A stretch of DNA of 18,918 nt from a virus. Taxonomy: Duplodnaviria; Heunggongvirae; Uroviricota; Caudoviricetes. Shown here piece by piece: positions 2,688-18,918 of the stretch. The translations under genes and the position numbers were made by a program. Position 1 is the stretch's first letter. Each line of letters opens with the position of its first letter. The notes beneath the pieces were generated by a model that searched no databases, was not told where the DNA came from, and worked only from the letters and a program-made list of their open reading frames with translations. The stretch lies in IMG/VR virus record IMGVR_UViG_2698536485_000019, positions 1 through 18,918 of that record; one strand, written 5' to 3'.

Positions 2688-2715
2688 AAAGGCCTGCGAT
2701 TACCAGCAGGCCTTT
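2688..2715. terminator. Perfect 10-bp stem hairpin at the 3' end of the HNH endonuclease gene (terminator-like, possibly bidirectional)
   Basis: aaaggcctgc (2688-2697) / gcaggccttt (2706-2715), 8-nt loop; T-run on the plus side (tatctgttttt) and TTATTTG on the minus side. Confidence 0.5.
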
Positions 2716-3325
2716 ATCTGTTTTTAACACGCTTTCGAGTCCTTTTAGATTTTTCCTTAAGATATTCCGCAAGTTTATCCTCATCATTATTAAATTGAGA
2801 TAAAAGCTCATGCTCGCAATTAAGTGCTTTACTCGCATAAGTTCCATATAGTTTCTTTCTTGCTAGTGCTGCTATGAATGCTGCATCTTCTTTGCTATCG
2901 AAATACCCTAACGATATTGTCTTATTTTTATAACCAACATAAGACTTCCACCTGCCAGTTGGCTTATACCAAGACACTCCAATTGCACCGGATGTGTTTA
3001 ATCTATTCCCTACAATGTTTCTTGCATTCTGCTCTTCTGTTGCCAGTCTTAGGTTTGAAATCCTATTGTCAAGTCTGTTCCCATTTACATGATCAATAAA
3101 CTTAGGAGGCCATTTTTTGTATACATAGAACCAAGCAAGTCTATGCGCCTTATACAAAACATTATTTATACTAATGCATATATAACCACCACTAACACCT
3201 CCAGCAATACTACCTTTTACTCTTACTACTGAATTTGTTTTTAGCCATTTAAATATTCCTGTTTCTGAGTCATATGATAATGTTGACAGAAGCTCATCGT
3301 GATCAATTAGTTTTTTTATTCGCAT
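2714..3325 (-). CDS. Free-standing HNH homing endonuclease with AP2-type DNA-binding domain
   Basis: 203-aa ORF; HNH motif IDHVNGNRLDNRISNLRLATEEQNARN and AP2-like segment GVSWYKPTGRWKSYVGYKNKTISLGYFDSKEDAAFIAA. The ~700-bp region is visibly AT-rich relative to its neighbours. Confidence 0.75.
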   Translation of the reverse strand: MRIKKLIDHDELLSTLSYDSETGIFKWLKTNSVVRVKGSIAGGVSGGYICISINNVLYKAHRLAWFYVYKKWPPKFIDHVNGNRLDNRISNLRLATEEQNARNIVGNRLNTSGAIGVSWYKPTGRWKSYVGYKNKTISLGYFDSKEDAAFIAALARKKLYGTYASKALNCEHELLSQFNNDEDKLAEYLKEKSKRTRKRVKNR

Positions 3326-3403: not shown

Positions 3404-3673
3404 TCATTGCTTCATCTCCCTTTCCATTTCATCAATGTCAACGTCATCAGGAAGATGGGAGCAATACGCCGCTATACCATGATGATTTATCTCATACCCT
3501 TTGAACGTTACCATCTGGTGCGTAATCTCAACTTCGTTCAGGAATCCGTCATCGCATAACTGCCTGGCTATTTTCGATTTGGTCTGGATTATTGGTAGTG
3601 CCTGTTCTTTCAAAGCGCATGATATTTGTGCATCCCATGCCTTTTCGAGAATAGCTAATTGTTTTTTATTCAT
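3404..3673 (-). CDS. Hypothetical nin-region protein
   Basis: 89-aa ORF whose ATG (3673..3671) overlaps the helicase stop (ATGA); no family recognised. Confidence 0.45.
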
Positions 3674-6063
3674 ACGTCAGCCCCTTGTGCATATCGTCTG
3701 CCACGCGCAGCAGGTGCATTTGATGCTGTGCAAATCTGTCTGGCTTCATCCTGGTCACATGCAACAAAGTGTCCGTTACAGAACCGCTGGTAAACCGTAC
3801 CAAGTGAGCCAAAACGGTTTTTCGTCACGATGATTTCAGCAAATGGCGCGGCGCTACTGTTCTCGTCATATACCGCTTCCCGATAGAGCATGATGATTGA
3901 GTCTGCGTCCTGTTCAATGCTTCCTGAATCACGCAAATCTGCGTTTGTCGGGCGTTTATTTGGTCGCTTCTCAACATCGCGCGAAAGCTGACTTAGGGAG
4001 ATAACTGGCGTTTTCAGGTCTTTCGCCATCGCCTTCAGGCTTCCGGAGATGTGAGCAATTGCGAGGTCGTTGCGGTCTGCTTTCGGCTTCTCAATCAGGC
4101 CAAGATAATCCGCCATGATGAGTGAGAGGTTTGGATTTTCCTGTTTGTGCCGTTCTGCGATTGAGCGTATTTCTTCGACCGATAACCGCGAGGCATCGAC
4201 TACCCATACATCCAAATCTGCAAGCTGACTCATGCCGTTAGCAACACGTGCCCAGCCTTCGTCATCCATCGATGCAGGATTTCGCAGTACGCTAACCGAC
4301 ATCCTCCCGGCGTTGGCAATGCTTCGCTCTGCAATCTGCAATGCGCTCATTTCCATTGAGAAAATCAATACCCCGCGCCGGACGTCAGAACCAGGAATAA
4401 CACGACTTGCAACGCCTTCGGCAATCTTCAGCGCCAGTTCCGTATTGTGCGTAACGATGTAATCCGTTGTCACATAGAGATGGCTAGGATGGCTTACCAT
4501 GATGCAGAGACACTCTTCTGGCTCAACAACTTCAACCGATTTGATACCCACACCAACGTCGCCAAGCCTGTTAATCCCGAGATTTTTGCGTAAACGTGGT
4601 GAGTGAATTTGCTCTATCAAAGATGATGGCAACTTCATGCTGACCATGTGTGCATCAAGTCCGTCGTGCTTCTCTCCTTTGTACGTGTAAACTATTCCCG
4701 TCCTGCTGGATTCTTTGGCGGTTCCACCTAAAGATCTAACAAGCCTTACTAATCCTTTAGCTAATTTCTGACTGGATGAACTAAAGCGGATGCATCCGGA
4801 CTTCTCAACCCAGCCATCTGTCTCGAGAAGGCCAGTTAAAACACCGGTACGTATTTCTTTGCTAGCACTAAAAATTTCTGCTGGGATTTCCTTCTCGGAC
4901 GCACCTTTCCCGATCACCCCAATGCCACGTAGTTTGTCCAATAGTGGGTTCTTCTGGCCTTTTTGGTTGCTTATCAAATAATCATTCTCTCCTACCTTAA
5001 CCAGTCGCAATGGTGCAATTGCATCACTCATGCGGCTCAGGACATATTCTTCCGAGTTGGTGAATTTGATGCCTTTTATCAACGAACCGTCACCAAGTAG
5101 AGCCCCAATAACCCAACCATCAAGGGGAATATTTTTACCAAAGTCTCCGGTCAAGGATGGCACTCTTATTCTTCCCTGATAACGTGTTTTTTGTAGCATC
5201 CCAGCCAGCGCATCAGTATCAACAACGCGTTTACCAGTAAATCTTGATGATGAAATTTCCCATAAGTGGTTGTCGGCACATTTCACGCTACGTCCGTCTT
5301 CAAAGGTGACTAAATATGTGAATTTCTTCCCTTGTGGGAAGACGCCAATTACCTCCGAAGGAAGCCCGTCTATTGACGCGATGCGATCGCCAATTTTGAC
5401 TTCTCCGTGAGTAGTCCAGGTGCCATCTGCAAGTAAAATCCCTTCGCTTAGCGCCATTGCTTTCCCCATACCAGGACGAGCAGCGATTATCACCAGGTCT
5501 TCTGCGTTCATCCCTCCGGTGATGGCGTCAAGTTCTTCGATTCCGGTCTTCAGGGTATCTGACTCTTCTCCGTTCCTCAGACGCCTGTCAAGCGTGTCAG
5601 TGTAGTCAGTGATGATTTCCCCTAACCGTACAGGTTTAACCTCGTCACGGGGCTTTCTGATGGCTGAGAGACGTTTTACAAGTTCATCCATCGCCTGACT
5701 CGATGCGTCGATGGTTCCGCTTTGGATTGGTTCACGCATTTCATCCATGATTTCCAGCACCAGACGGCGGTGATAGTTATCCGCGACCATTCCGGCATAT
5801 CCCTTCAGGTTTGCGGCACTCGGGCAGTTTTTGCTGGTCATCAGGATTGACGTGAAATGCTCCTCTCCGCACGCCTCGGCAACCATCAGCGCGTCGATTA
5901 GGTTTCTGTTTCGCGCCTGCTTACGGATAACCTCGAAGGCTTTCCGGTAGAGCGGAATTGAAAACGCCTCCGGCTCCAGCGTTGCCAGAACGTCGCTGGC
6001 AGTTGGCGTTAATCCACCAATCAGCAGGCCACCGATAACGCTCGCTTCGATATCCTGTCTCAT
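3670..6063 (-). CDS. DnaB-family replicative helicase (P22 gp12-like) interrupted by an intein
   Basis: 797-aa ORF. N-terminal domain with ...[18 protein letters not shown]..., Walker A AARPGMGK then a ~339-aa insertion, resuming [10 protein letters not shown]... with typical DnaB C-terminal motifs. Start overlaps the O-like gene stop (ATGA). Confidence 0.85.
4444..5460 (-). mobile_element. Intein with LAGLIDADG homing-endonuclease domain inserted at the helicase P-loop (GMGK | T)
   Basis: Helicase residues 202-540. Begins [14 protein letters not shown] (Ala, not Cys/Ser), block B ...[19 protein letters not shown]-like motifs [13 protein letters not shown] and [11 protein letters not shown], block [20 protein letters not shown], block G YIVTHN followed by +1 Thr, which restores GK-T of Walker A after excision. 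Confidence 0.75.
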
Positions 6064-11412: not shown

Positions 11413-12069
11413 ATGGGTACTGCGACATTAATACTCGGTGAGTCTGGCACCGGAAAATCAACCAGTTTAAGAAACTTACCACCAGAAAAAACATTAATCA
11501 TACAGTGCATAAACAAACCGCTACCATTCCCATCAAGTGATTGGGTTAAAATAAGCAAGGAAAACAATAACGGGAACATATACAGAACAGATAATACTGA
11601 AAATATTGTAAGGGCACTAATTAATGCTCCGCATGAAATTGTAGTTATTGATGATTATCAGGCTGTGATGGTTAACGAACTAATGGGTAAATGCAATGAG
11701 AGAGGATATGACAAATTTACCTCGATAGGGAAAAACGCATGGGATGTGTTCAGGGCTGCTGGTGAAGGTGCAGACACTCGGAGAGTTTATATTCTGGCAC
11801 ACACGCAAACTGATGATTTTGGCTATACACGAATGAAAACCGTCGGAAAACTAGTCGATTCGACACTTGTTCCTGAAGGTTATTTCACTATCGTGTTAAG
11901 AACTCACGTACAGAACGGAAAATACTCATTTTCCACCCAGACAAACGGGAGTGATTGTTGTAAAAGTCCGGTTGGGATGTTTGATAGTCAGTTTATTGAT
12001 AATGATTTGTACGAAGTAGATAAAAAAATATGCTCTTACTATGGGTTTGAAAAAAATGAGACGTCTTGA
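11413..12069 (+). CDS. Sak4-like RecA-core ATPase (phage single-strand annealing recombinase family)
   Basis: 218-aa ORF with N-terminal Walker A GESGTGKST and Walker B-like VVIDDY; size and position (replacing exo/bet) fit Sak4-type recombinases of P22-like phages. Confidence 0.6.
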   Translation: MGTATLILGESGTGKSTSLRNLPPEKTLIIQCINKPLPFPSSDWVKISKENNNGNIYRTDNTENIVRALINAPHEIVVIDDYQAVMVNELMGKCNERGYDKFTSIGKNAWDVFRAAGEGADTRRVYILAHTQTDDFGYTRMKTVGKLVDSTLVPEGYFTIVLRTHVQNGKYSFSTQTNGSDCCKSPVGMFDSQFIDNDLYEVDKKICSYYGFEKNETS

Positions 12070-12661
12070 GGTATCCGGCGAGAGATTTGGCAATTTAGTT
12101 GTTATTGGTGATGCAGGAATGCGTGGTACTCAAAGGTTGGTAAACTGTGTGTGTGACTGCGGAGTAGTTTGTGTTAAACAGCTTGGCAACCTCCGTTCAG
12201 GGCACACAAGAAGTTGTGGTTGCTCACGCTCATCTACAACAAAAGCAAGAAAAAACAAACATGGCATGTATGGAACACCAACATACAAGTCATGGTCTTC
12301 AATGTTAACAAGATGCTTCAATGAAAGAAATAGTAAATACAAACACTATGGAGGAAGAGGAATAACTGTTTGTGAACGGTGGCTGAACTTTAAATTATTT
12401 TTCGCTGATATGGGAAAAAGACCTGACGGAACTACATTGGGAAGAATTGATAACAATGGTAATTACGAACCATCAAATTGCGAATGGCAGAAAAGTATCG
12501 AGCAAGCAAGAAATAAGAGTAATACCGTATTATTTAAATTCAATGGAGTGCTGGCAACAATTTCAGAGCACTGCGAAAAAACTGGATTAAACCCAAGCAC
12601 GGTAAGAAGCAGGATTTACACATATCATTGGTCTGTAGACAAGGCCTTATCAAAAGGATAA
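12041..12661 (+). CDS. Cys-rich HNH-family (variant) nuclease-like protein
   Basis: N-terminal Cys cluster CVCDCG...SCGC; C-terminal RIDNNGNYEPSNCEWQKSIEQARN parallels the HNH motif IDHVNGN...NLRLATEEQNARN of the 2714-3325 endonuclease, with the first His replaced by Asn. Start ambiguous (ATG at 12041 or 12056). Confidence 0.5.
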   Translation: MGLKKMRRLEVSGERFGNLVVIGDAGMRGTQRLVNCVCDCGVVCVKQLGNLRSGHTRSCGCSRSSTTKARKNKHGMYGTPTYKSWSSMLTRCFNERNSKYKHYGGRGITVCERWLNFKLFFADMGKRPDGTTLGRIDNNGNYEPSNCEWQKSIEQARNKSNTVLFKFNGVLATISEHCEKTGLNPSTVRSRIYTYHWSVDKALSKG

Positions 12662-12665
12662 AAGC

Positions 12666-13253
12666 ATGAGCAACGTAATTTTTACTTATAACGAAGAAGC
12701 AGCACTGACCGCAGGGCAAGGTGGTTTTATTAACGAAACTGGCGCTCACATAATTACCATTACTGAAGCAGAACTCAAGCAATCAGAAAAAGGAGCCAAA
12801 TTTATTGAGTTTTCTGGAGAATCCGACGACGGACGTAAAATCCAGTATCTTAGCGTCTGTGTTCAGAAAAATGACGGCACGGAAAACAAATTTGGCGCAA
12901 ATGTCGTTCACGCCATGATGGGGTGTGCCGGGATTGGACAATTAACGCAACATATGGTTTCCGCCAGTAAATTTGTTGCACCTGAATTTCATGGAAAGAA
13001 AATCGGGTTAGTGCTCCAGAAAGTATTAACCACAAACAAAAAGACTGGCGCAGACAGCTACCAGATGGAAATACGCATCCCGTTTATTGCACAAACAGGT
13101 CAAACCCTTAAAGAAAAGGCAGAAGGCAAGCAACCAGAAACTATCGCCAACATGGTTGCCAGCCTCAAAGATAAAGACAATCGCTCTAAAAACGTAAGCC
13201 ATAATCATGCAGATGATTATGGTTACAGCCAGAACGATTACCCTCCTTTCTGA
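12666..13253 (+). CDS. SSB-like protein (probable partner of Sak4) with acidic C-terminal tail
   Basis: 195-aa ORF ending ...HADDYGYSQNDYPPF, reminiscent of the SSB C-terminal tail ...DDDIPF; adjacent to the Sak4-like gene. Confidence 0.5.
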   Translation: MSNVIFTYNEEAALTAGQGGFINETGAHIITITEAELKQSEKGAKFIEFSGESDDGRKIQYLSVCVQKNDGTENKFGANVVHAMMGCAGIGQLTQHMVSASKFVAPEFHGKKIGLVLQKVLTTNKKTGADSYQMEIRIPFIAQTGQTLKEKAEGKQPETIANMVASLKDKDNRSKNVSHNHADDYGYSQNDYPPF

Positions 13254-16610: not shown

Positions 16611-16652
16611 GACGTAACCAATATTCGAATTGAAGAACTGAAAGAACACCAA

Positions 16653-16675
16653 GCCGCCTGATGGCGGTTTTTTCT
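16653..16675 (+). terminator. Rho-independent terminator upstream of xis
   Basis: gccgcc-tgat-ggcggt followed by tttttc. Confidence 0.55.
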
Positions 16676-16680
16676 TACAC

Positions 16681-16980
16681 ATGCAGAGGCAACTTATGCG
16701 CGAGTTAGTAAACCAACATAACCATGGCATTCAGCCAGTCATCACACCTGTTGTACAGATAAATGCGAATGAATGGGTAACACTGGAGCTTTTAATGGCT
16801 GTAACAGGCCTGAGAAAAGGAACAATATTACGCGCCAGGGACAGTGCGTGGATGAACGGCAGAGAATATAAACAAATCGCCCCCGACGGAACGCCAAAGA
16901 AAAACAGCGAATGTCTCTATCATCTTCCTACCATCAACACTTGGATCAAAAACCAACCCTTACCATCTCAGGATGTTTAA
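16681..16980 (+). CDS. xis: Excisionase-like protein (Xis)
   Basis: 99-aa ORF directly upstream of int; segment EWVTLELLMAVTGLRKGTILRARDSAWMNGREYKQ resembles the lambda Xis fold pattern (W..., GREY); start uncertain. Confidence 0.5.
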   Translation: MQRQLMRELVNQHNHGIQPVITPVVQINANEWVTLELLMAVTGLRKGTILRARDSAWMNGREYKQIAPDGTPKKNSECLYHLPTINTWIKNQPLPSQDV

Positions 16981-17032
16981 TTCTTGTCCATAAGAGTATA
17001 ACCTGAGCGTGCTCTTGGACGCAGGAGGAACA

Positions 17033-18343
17033 ATGGCGAATTCAGCCTATCCAGCCGGCGTTGAAAATCACGGAGGAAAACTCCGAATAACGTTTAAGTA
17101 CAGGGGTAAACGAGTGCGCGAAAATCTTCGCGTGCCCGATACACCGAAAAACAGAAAGATCGCTGGTGAGTTAAGGGCTTCGGTCTGCTTTGCAATCAGA
17201 ACAGGAACGTTTGATTATGCCGATCGATTCCCTGACTCACCTAACCTGAAGCTATTTGGCCTGGTAAAAAAAGATATCACCGTCGGTGAACTGGCACAGA
17301 AATGGCTTACTCTGAAAGCAATGGAAATCGGTAGTAACGCCTTAAATCGTTATCAATCAGTGATGAAAAATATGCTACCGAGGCTTGGTCCTGGCAGGCT
17401 GGCGTCATCGATTACAAAAGAAGATCTGCTGTTTATCAGGAAAGATTTACTGACCGGGGAAAAGGGAAGCAGGAAAACCAGCACGTCCCGAAAAGGAAGA
17501 ACCGTACCCACAGTGAACTATTACATGACAACAACAGCCGGAATGTTCAGCTTTGCCGCCGAAAACGGGTATCTGGAGAAAAACCCGTTTAATTCAATAA
17601 CACCGCTGAGGAAATCAAAACCAGTGCCGGATCCACTGACCAGAGATGAGTTTAGCCGTCTCATTGATGCCTGCCATCATCAACAGACCAAAAACCTCTG
17701 GACAGTGGCTGTTTTTACAGGGATGCGACACGGTGAAATTGCCGCACTTGCATGGGAGGATATCGACCTGAAAGCTGGCACGATAACAGTGCGACGAAAT
17801 TTTACAAAAATAGGTGATTTTACGCTACCAAAGACCGACGCAGGCACTAACCGGGTTATACATCTTCTGGCACCAGCAATTGAAGCACTTAAAAACCAGG
17901 CGATGCTTACTCGTCTTAGCAGGCAGCATCAGATCACTGTTCAATTACGCGAGTACGGAAGAACAATTTTGCACGAGTGCACTTTTGTTTTCTGTCCGCA
18001 AATCGTTCGCAAGAATCACAAGGCGGGTATTAACTACGCGGTAAGCTCCATCGGAGCGACATGGGATTCAGCAATAAAAAGAGCGGGTATCCGATCCCGT
18101 AAAGCGTATCAGTCACGCCATACCTATGCGTGCTGGGCTTTATCTTCCGGAGCAAACCCGACATTTATTGCATCACAGATGGGGCACTCCAGCGCCAGCA
18201 TGGTCTACAATGTTTATGGTGCATGGATGCCTGAGTGCAGCGTGACTCAAGTTGCCATGTTGAATAATGTCCTTAATGCCCGTGCCCCAGACGTGCCCCA
18301 AAGTGACCAGGAGGATGAAATAAAATTATATTTTTCAAAATGA
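17033..18343 (+). CDS. int: Tyrosine-family site-specific integrase
   Basis: ATG at 17033 after AGGAGG; catalytic-domain motifs [15 protein letters not shown]...MGHSS...VYNVYGAW (R...HxxR...Y); lies at the prophage-host junction and its stop overlaps the wrbA-frame ATG. Confidence 0.85.
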
Positions 18344-18918
18344 TAAACCATATCCTTAGACATGTTGAAACGATGGCACGCGCAGTCGCTGAGGGTGCAA
18401 GCAAAGTCGATGGCGCAGAAGTTGTCGTTAAGCGTGTACCGGAAACCATGCCGCCGCAATTATTTGAAAAAGCAGGCGGTAAAACGCAAACTGCACCGGT
18501 TGCAACCCCGCAAGAACTGGCCGATTACGACGCCATTATTTTTGGTACACCTACCCGCTTTGGCAACATGTCCGGTCAAATGCGTACCTTCCTCGACCAG
18601 ACGGGCGGCCTGTGGGCTTCCGGCGCACTATACGGAAAACTGGCGAGCGTCTTTAGTTCCACCGGTACTGGCGGCGGTCAGGAACAAACTATTACTTCAA
18701 CCTGGACGACCCTTGCGCATCACGGCATGGTAATTGTCCCCATTGGCTACGCAGCGCAGGAATTATTTGACGTTTCACAGGTTCGCGGCGGTACGCCGTA
18801 CGGCGCAACCACCATCGCAGGCGGTGACGGCTCACGCCAGCCAAGCCAGGAAGAACTGTCTATTGCTCGTTATCAAGGGGAATATGTCGCAGGTCTGGCA
18901 GTTAAACTTAACGGCTAA
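18340..18918 (+). CDS. wrbA: NAD(P)H:quinone oxidoreductase WrbA, 3' portion with a phage-derived replacement N-terminus (host gene disrupted by prophage integration)
   Basis: From [32 protein letters not shown]... to ...[11 protein letters not shown] the translation matches E. coli WrbA as I recall it; the first 8 residues (MINHILRH) replace the native MAKVLVLYYSMYGH, and the frame is closed upstream by a stop at 18316. Confidence 0.8.

Follow-up and report, generated by a model that had tools for sequence, protein, structure and literature searches.

A probable 933W/VT2-Sakai-type lambdoid prophage junction within the wrbA gene of Escherichia coli

Gene content of the window

The window, by which we mean the whole 18,918-nucleotide stretch of DNA that was analysed, closes with three co-oriented plus strand frames in its last 2.3 kb: xis, int and a 192-codon open reading frame (ORF) that ends with a TAA at 18918. 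The excisionase gene xis (16681..16980, plus strand) matches PHROG 539 (E 8e-37) and the Pfam family DUF1233 (105 bits), is annotated as xis in the VT2-Sakai record AP000422, and is preceded just upstream by a terminator-like hairpin (16651-16670). The adjoining int gene (17033..18343, plus strand) encodes a heterobivalent tyrosine integrase of 436 aa, with an Arm-DNA-bind_2 domain (PF12167, residues 7-70, 90.6 bits) followed by a Phage_integrase domain (PF00589, residues 202-395, 64 bits). Its ATG at 17033 has an AGGAGG 5 nt upstream. An alternative GTG start at 17009 gives a 444-aa protein; RefSeq annotates the 436-aa form and VT2-Sakai the 444-aa form, and the frame stops at the TGA at 18341-18343.

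Everything else in the window belongs to the early region of a lambdoid prophage. On the minus strand are ant, a DNA methylase gene, ninB, an HNH endonuclease gene, a gene for a 797-aa primase-helicase, an O-like initiator gene and cII. The plus strand carries cI, N, genes for a Sak4-like annealing protein, a second HNH endonuclease and a single-stranded DNA-binding protein (SSB), several small ORFs, and then xis and int. Since the plus strand order runs from cI and N to xis and int, the interrupted wrbA gene lies downstream of the pL operon and is co-oriented with it. The absence of stx from the window, remarked on in the initial annotation, agrees with this content, which extends from ant, by way of the genes for replication, immunity and recombination, as far as xis-int; any stx genes of this prophage would sit downstream of Q, outside the window on its left. 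No record contains the window as one contiguous piece, the best coverage being 57% among complete E. coli genomes and 54% among phage records. Such mosaicism is normal for lambdoid phages.

The prophage-host junction

The third frame (18340..18918, plus strand) is a fusion. Its first nine codons, MINHILRHV, are phage sequence, codons 10 and 11 fall in the common core described below, and the rest corresponds to wrbA codons 17-198 and the stop; the 192-aa product ends in ...KLNG. The start codon at 18340-18342 overlaps the int stop at 18341-18343 in the tetranucleotide ATGA (18340..18343, plus strand; context aaaATGAtaa), so that a phage-supplied ATG lying over the int stop, as initially described, can be read directly from the DNA. 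The same description had WrbA beginning at codon 9 with HVETMARAV, after eight phage codons. That the ORF is WrbA, and that its ATG and start come from the phage, is borne out; however, the histidine is codon 8 and the valine codon 9, and the phage codons number nine, V9 carrying the phage allele.

When positions 18100-18918 are compared by megablast with 5,426 complete E. coli genomes, almost every genome proves to contain wrbA. Uninterrupted wrbA identity begins at 18359, and from there onward the window is 99.8% identical to the intact wrbA of many E. coli genomes. Among 50,697 phage records, identity to free-phage attP (e.g. that of Stx2 converting phage I) runs from int in the other direction and stops at 18375. 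The claim that a prophage-host junction lies inside wrbA is thus substantiated by attP identity up to 18375, attB identity from 18359, and a shared core between them. This extended, imperfect core (18359..18375), GACAT(G/A)TTGAAAC(G/C)ATG, is the same in attP and attB at 15 of its 17 positions. The junction flanks are 99-100% identical to known attP or attB over hundreds of bases, which excludes a chance pattern.

The crossover was located by a four-way att alignment of the window junction (AGACATgTTGAAACgATGGCAC), intact wrbA from strain NIPH17_0020 as attB (GGACATaTTGAAACgATGGCAC), the attP of Stx2 phage I (AGACATgTTGAAACcATGAAGC) and the distal junction of strain 2014C-3061 (GGACATaTTGAAACcATGAAGC). 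The window has the phage allele, G, at 18364 and the host allele, also G, at 18372, and strand exchange therefore falls within the 7-bp identity TTGAAAC (18365..18371). These limits lie close to the first estimate of 18358-18370. Positions 18372..18918 (plus strand) are host chromosomal DNA, running from the last base of wrbA codon 17 to the stop.

The whole junction is spanned in 216 genomes by megablast and in 217 of the 5,426 complete E. coli genomes (about 4%) by a second search. Strain 2014C-3061 is 100% identical to the window over 819 bases of the int-wrbA junction, and the distal end of its prophage carries the matching core and a wrbA 5' stub, MAKVLVLYYSMYGHIETMKH* (L005 7372-7434), which together form the reciprocal junction. 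This reciprocal junction was read in 2014C-3061 as a proxy with an identical int-proximal junction, the window itself ending before the distal end of its own prophage; in the source genome, the other prophage end would read ...ATGGCTAAAGTTCTGGTGCTTTATTATTCCATGTACGGACATATTGAAAC and then CATGAAGCATTAA. Two patterns had been named beforehand as speaking against an insertion, a wrbA alignment running further upstream and a distal end with no matching core. What was found is that no intact wrbA alignment among the 5,426 complete genomes reaches upstream of 18359, and that core and stub are both present at the distal end in 2014C-3061.

It is therefore very likely that the end of the window is the integrase-proximal att junction of a 933W/VT2-Sakai-type (Sepvirinae) lambdoid prophage in E. 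coli wrbA, and that wrbA is functionally disrupted by it. In the chromosome orientation of Sakai and EDL933, this junction is attL by the lambda convention, although it lies on the right in this window.

A junction of this kind is ordinary biology, already known for the 933W/VT2-Sakai family. Stx phages of the 933W/VT2-Sakai type have been known since 1999 to attach at wrbA, and the use of this gene by lambdoid and Stx phages, also put forward in the initial annotation, is documented for Stx1, Stx2 and non-Stx lambdoid phages alike. Scoring of wrbA occupancy is routine in the typing of Shiga toxin-producing E. coli (STEC), and wrbA appears in the literature on lists of genes that integrating phages disrupt. 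The GenBank records of VT2-Sakai (AP000422) and Stx2 phage I (AP004402) annotate TTGAAAC as an "attachment site", and the former describes the wrbA coding sequence as "divided by the insertion of prophage". For prophages at wrbA, an att length of 7 bp is given in a recent Stx phage survey. Integration of 933W in K-12 has been reported at CATCGTTTCAATATGTC, of which the 17-bp stretch at 18359-18375 is the reverse complement.

Integrase recognition sites

On this reading, the heterobivalent tyrosine integrase recombined attP with attB inside wrbA codons 15-17, with exchange within TTGAAAC. The elements that flank this overlap, CAT(G/A) on one side and (C/G)ATG on the other, are probably core-type Int sites.

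Candidate arm-type sites occur close by. Two direct TGCCCCA repeats lie in the 3' end of int (18283..18300, plus strand; copies at 18283-18289 and 18294-18300), and an inverted copy is found at 18180-18186 on the minus strand. These three are the only copies in the 18.9-kb window, and all are within 190 bp of the core. In the attP of Stx2 phage I, six more copies are arranged in three tandem 31-bp repeats located 125-210 bp beyond the core. The count in the window is not enriched (3 versus 2.4 expected), and the heptamer therefore gains meaning only through its clustering beside the core and the six further copies in attP. Following the lambda paradigm, and given an integrase with an arm-binding domain, we take these heptamers to be putative arm-type Int sites.

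Comparison with related integration systems

The closest relatives are 933W in EDL933, VT2-Sakai (Sp5) in Sakai, and the Stx1a, Stx2a and non-Stx prophages at wrbA known as PPwrbA, whose xis-int-att modules are 99-100% identical to that of the window. They have the TTGAAAC core in common with it, occupy the same place in wrbA and face the same way, int being directed into the wrbA 3' fragment, after which come yccJ and agp. Where the early regions are compared, however, the window is another mosaic: it includes the 797-aa primase-helicase, and has the Sak4-like annealing protein, HNH endonuclease and SSB in place of Bet, Exo and Gam.

Lambda itself provides a more distant but useful model. As in the lambda Int/Xis system, a heterobivalent tyrosine integrase with an arm-binding N-terminal domain is encoded next to an excisionase, and, as in POP' x BOB', a core of 7-bp overlap size is flanked by imperfect inverted CATG-like elements. 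In both cases, the core has repeated (here candidate) arm sites to its left and right, and int is transcribed toward att in the pL direction. Unlike in lambda, the target is inside a protein-coding gene rather than intergenic, and the binding sites here are predicted from sequence. The int stop in the window is also just 21 nt from the core, a further departure from lambda, so that one of the putative arms would lie inside the int coding sequence.

Integrations that preserve the target gene, such as those of phage 21 and e14 at icd, those in tRNA genes and those of relatives at the 3' end of fliE, are also intragenic and also bring phage codons up against the core. The phages in question carry a close copy of the gene end that they displace, which leaves the product the same or almost the same; the integrase relatives at the fliE 3' end (about 62% identity), for example, restore its last codons, ...MQV-stop. 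In wrbA, by contrast, it is the 5' end and the promoter that are displaced, and the phage codons bear no relation to that end. Integrases of the yecE-type Stx phages found in Citrobacter, Enterobacter, Kluyvera and Pseudescherichia belong to the same family (about 67-70% identical) and use a similar core (CATGTTAAC, versus CATGTTGAAAC for the wrbA type). The yecE gene is also disrupted in its 5' part, but the target gene is a different one and the phage supplies no in-frame ATG.

The fusion product

The prophage parts the first 16-17 wrbA codons and the native RpoS-dependent promoter from the rest of the gene. In the fusion, the 15 native residues MAKVLVLYYSMYGHI are exchanged for the nine phage-encoded residues MINHILRHV. 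Only a histidine aligns between the two, H8 matching native His14, along with a valine for an isoleucine: at 18364, V9 (GTT) shows the phage allele, the native codon being ATT for Ile15. These two correspondences follow from the imperfect homology of the extended core, and the phage codons do not reproduce the displaced end of wrbA as an end-duplicating integration would.

Profile matches delimit what this type IV NAD(P)H:quinone oxidoreductase has lost. The NCBIfam WrbA equivalogs match the fusion only from profile position 12/13 to the end, and Pfam FMN_red begins at profile position 17 in the fusion and at position 2 in native WrbA. Positions 1-12 of the former and 1-16 of the latter are thus gone, in keeping with the initial proposal that the missing N-terminus is the start of the flavodoxin-type fold. 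The Flavodoxin_1 score drops from 40.7 bits in native WrbA to 22.8 bits in the fusion, under the gathering score of 25, and weak flavodoxin NCBIfam matches to native residues 1-45 vanish. Going by the flavodoxin-like fold, we take the deleted 12-16 profile positions to be strand beta1, which lies at the centre of the sheet, and the loop that holds the FMN phosphate. The fusion consequently has no complete flavodoxin-like domain, beta1 and the flavin-phosphate loop being located in native residues 1-15. The flavin phosphate is bound by the loop after beta1 in flavodoxin-like quinone reductases (PMC4274662), and the missing segment includes Tyr12, a residue lining the active site of WrbA (PMC10302398). 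In the WrbA tetramer, which is the working form, each active site is assembled from three subunits (PMC3430622), which makes it unlikely that a misfolded fusion subunit would be rescued. Because the first beta-strand and the flavin-phosphate loop are missing, the fusion product is very probably inactive or unstable.

A polypeptide may be made from the fusion nonetheless: the ORF is intact in all junction copies inspected, its NCBIfam score is high, and the corresponding RNA is abundant in EDL933. How its translation would begin is less evident from the surrounding sequence. There is no Shine-Dalgarno sequence at a working distance from the fusion ATG, the nearby AGGAGG ending 25 nt upstream, and the RNA fold predicted around the start (18295-18400) is no better than that of shuffled sequences (z = -1.26). 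The ATGA overlap would, however, allow termination-reinitiation by ribosomes finishing int. The wrbA frame is closed by a TGA at 18316-18318, which leaves no more than seven open codons ahead of the ATG, itself the first start after that stop. With so short an upstream open frame, an in-frame start could easily be accidental; the ATG over the int stop would then be an accident of phage sequence that makes a 192-codon ORF with the wrbA 3' part. In free-phage attP, the same ATG opens an ORF of only 14 codons.

Transcription of the wrbA fragments

The wrbA 5' stub, of about 16-20 codons (MAKVLVLYYSMYGHIETMKH-stop in 2014C-3061), keeps the native promoter a prophage length away from the remainder of the gene. 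The fusion is not on this RpoS-dependent promoter, which sits at the distal junction. Stationary-phase arrays of EDL933, with log2 values on a scale from about 2.2 to about 15 (PMC2907692, Additional file 1), cover both fragments. Z1504, the N-terminal fragment, has a 93-fold RpoS dependence (PMC2907692). Z1423, the 3' fragment, is at 12.9 in the wild type and 11.4 in the rpoS mutant (2.9-fold), and Z1422 (yccJ) at 12.3 and 10.7, respectively (3.1-fold; PMC2907692). The difference between 93-fold and 2.9-fold indicates that the two halves of wrbA are transcriptionally uncoupled in EDL933. The 3' half and yccJ are well transcribed there from some RpoS-independent source, and the fusion may thus be made, even if it should be inactive.

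One candidate source is a weak sigma-70-like match, GTGACC-18 nt-TATATT (18303..18332, plus strand; 9/12 matches), with a predicted transcription start at about 18339-18340. It is the only plus strand hit between 16400 and 18918, and it points into the fusion ORF. The scan of this region returned three hits where 3.5 are expected from shuffled sequences, and the match can therefore not be called as a promoter.

A literature search found no paper joining wrbA, lysogen, disruption and oxidative stress, and a published O157 proteome that lists WrbA is uninformative on the fusion, the strain used being 933D, which is without stx2 and presumably without the 933W prophage. A suitable proteomic marker would be the tryptic peptide HVETMAR of the fusion, the native WrbA counterpart of which is VLVLYYSMYGHIETMAR.

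Alternative readings of the junction

That no integration took place, and that the junction is instead a chimera of the assembly or a naturally divergent allele of wrbA, has a negligible probability. We found no support for it, and it is ruled out by the identical junction in 217 independent complete genomes and many prophage records, by the presence of the reciprocal junction, and by a breakpoint that falls on the core shared by attP and attB. A different possibility is that the junction is genuine but that the prophage is no longer an active phage, having decayed to a remnant unable to excise. The lack of any complete E. coli genome or phage record in which the window is contiguous (at most 57% and 54% coverage) would fit such a remnant, as would the wrbA prophage of 2014C-3061, which carries IS elements and frameshifted genes and has no stx annotated in the interval from the tRNA genes that follow Q to the esterase gene beyond them. 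However, ant, the methylase gene, ninB, the replication genes, cII, cI, N, the recombination module, xis, int and att all look intact in the window, the mosaic coverage is of a kind usual in lambdoid phages, and the window does not reach the late region. Decay is therefore an unlikely reading, if one that keeps some weight.

Two further proposals accept the integration and concern its consequences. It may be that a promoter at the phage end (the candidate at 18303-18332), reinitiation at the ATGA, or both shift wrbA'-yccJ in lysogens from RpoS control to largely constitutive control, so that yccJ is expressed or a partly active truncated WrbA is made. If true, a host operon would be rewired by integration rather than simply knocked out, but we consider this improbable. 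About as improbable is that the fusion is selected, with the phage start codon, and perhaps a promoter or coupling to int, keeping a shortened but working WrbA or protecting yccJ from polarity. The ATGA overlap, which permits termination-reinitiation, is compatible with selection, as are the abundant and nearly RpoS-independent wrbA' (Z1423) and yccJ (Z1422) RNAs of EDL933, a sigma-70-like match that would start transcription at the ATG, and an ORF that is intact in every junction copy examined. That intactness is weightless, though, in junction copies that are at least 99% identical, and the promoter match is no better than those in shuffled sequences. The nine phage residues do not mimic the fifteen that they replace beyond the histidine and the valine for isoleucine that come from core homology, and they cannot rebuild the beta1 strand and phosphate loop; one natural variant, R7S, alters this phage-derived part. 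The 14-codon ORF of attP has no evident role, only seven codons are open upstream of the ATG, and where related integrases have entered the 5' part of yecE, the phage provides no ATG in frame. A test for selection on the ATG is powerless with the available sequences, 212 of the 219 full-length junction copies in complete E. coli genomes being at least 99% identical, and none of 75 integrase homologues in other species (at most 70% identity) adjoins wrbA.

Consequences for annotation

With the junction read as a 933W/VT2-Sakai-type integration that disrupts wrbA, the naming of the fusion deserves attention. In the records examined, RefSeq names it wrbA (NAD(P)H:quinone oxidoreductase, WP_000607018.1) with no pseudogene flag. 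This naming follows from scores far above the NCBIfam cut-offs for WrbA (325.6 bits for NF002999, with a cut-off of 141, and 323 bits for TIGR01755, with a cut-off of 132.5). Unflagged, and present in about 4% of the complete E. coli genomes, such a fusion can lead pan-genome and mutation analyses astray. A preprint, for example, reports a wrbA "G25A (V9I) mutation" in EDL933 clones that lost 933W. This change is the switch from the phage to the host allele at 18364, as precise excision restoring attB requires.

The wrbA allele at the prophage junction

In EDL933 clones that have lost the Stx2 prophage 933W, a wrbA point mutation (G25A, Val9Ile) has been reported, and it was suggested in the same preprint that this change alters attB (bioRxiv 10.1101/2022.08.08.503262). 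Position 25, in codon 9 of the annotated fusion ORF (18340-18918), corresponds to window position 18364, where the phage allele carries G. Precise excision brings the native A, belonging to Ile15 of intact WrbA, back to this position. The reported mutation is therefore an artefact, arising because the reference for the comparison was the fusion ORF, which carries the annotation wrbA. Two of the examined junction copies, L082 and L083 (O157:H7 ATCC 35150 and PNUSAE147328), have T at 18451 and hence Pro38Ser in the fusion ORF (ETMSPQ versus ETMPPQ); the two further differences from the window's wrbA allele are both silent.

Transcription across the junction

In arrays of the lysogen EDL933, the log2 signal of the wrbA 3' fragment (Z1423) is 12.9 for the wild type and 11.4 for the rpoS mutant; for yccJ (Z1422) the corresponding values are 12.3 and 10.7, and the RpoS dependence of the wrbA 5' fragment (Z1504) is 93-fold (PMC2907692, Additional file 1). 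The yccJ gene lies 3' of the fusion ORF, beyond the end of the window. Directly 5' of xis, at 16651-16670, there is a terminator-like site, a G+C-rich hairpin with a run of T on its 3' side (AAGCCGCCTGATGGCGGTTT TTTCTT). Transcripts from pL that have not been antiterminated would need to read through this site en route to xis, int and the wrbA 3' part.

Candidate arm-type sites and the attP arm

The att core is flanked on either side by clusters of the heptamer TGCCCCA. On the int side, three copies fall inside the 3' end of int, at 18180-18186 (- strand), 18283-18289 (+) and 18294-18300 (+); in the other attP arm, as represented by the attP region of Stx2 phage I (L002), six copies are contained in three tandem 31-bp repeats (L002 3092-3184). 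These heptamers are probably arm-type Int-binding sites. The sequence (A/G)TGCCCCA also directly precedes the stop codon in many distant int homologues.

The attP of Stx2 phage I additionally includes a 22-nt inverted repeat, 86% complementary and with a 3-nt loop, approximately 240 bp past the core (L002 3204-3250). Its position downstream of int and across attP recalls that of lambda sib, whose control of int mRNA is confined to phage that has not integrated. Once the phage has become a prophage, the inverted repeat lands at the distal junction.

Mosaic structure and related prophages

The window is a new mosaic made of known lambdoid modules. Neither a set of 5,426 complete E. coli genomes nor one of 50,697 phage records contains it in one piece; the highest coverage was 57% among the genomes (O157:H7 TT12A) and 54% among the phage records. 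The recombination module (11413-13253) consists of a Sak4-like annealing protein, an HNH endonuclease and SSB, whereas 933W-type phages and the proxy strain 2014C-3061 have Gam/Bet/Exo in its place. A second HNH endonuclease (2714-3325) and a replication protein, a 797-aa primase-helicase fusion (3670-6063), are both encoded on the - strand.

Strain 2014C-3061 (NZ_CP027548.1) has an int-wrbA junction 100% identical to that of the window. Its wrbA prophage, in which several genes are frameshifted and an insertion of the IS110 family is present, encodes Q, three tRNAs and a nanS-p-like esterase, with no annotated stx genes between the Q/tRNA genes and the esterase gene (L005 47582-48113), and is of the stx-negative "PPwrbA" type.

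More distant integrase relatives use other targets, with junctions 30-60 bp past the int stop. For those at 67-70% identity (L006-L013) the target is yecE, which is entered in its 5' part at ...HFNCVEGNTT... (core CATGTTAAC). Those at approximately 62% (L014-L047) are found at the 3' end of fliE, which lies on the opposite strand; there the final ...MQV-stop is rebuilt from phage sequence. Gene-disrupting and gene-preserving insertions thus occur within one integrase family. Finally, a 455-bp contig of the Xanthomonas pisi DSM 18956 assembly (NZ_JPLE01000249.1) encodes integrase residues 1-105 at 100% identity; this fragment most likely represents E. coli/Stx-phage contamination of that assembly.
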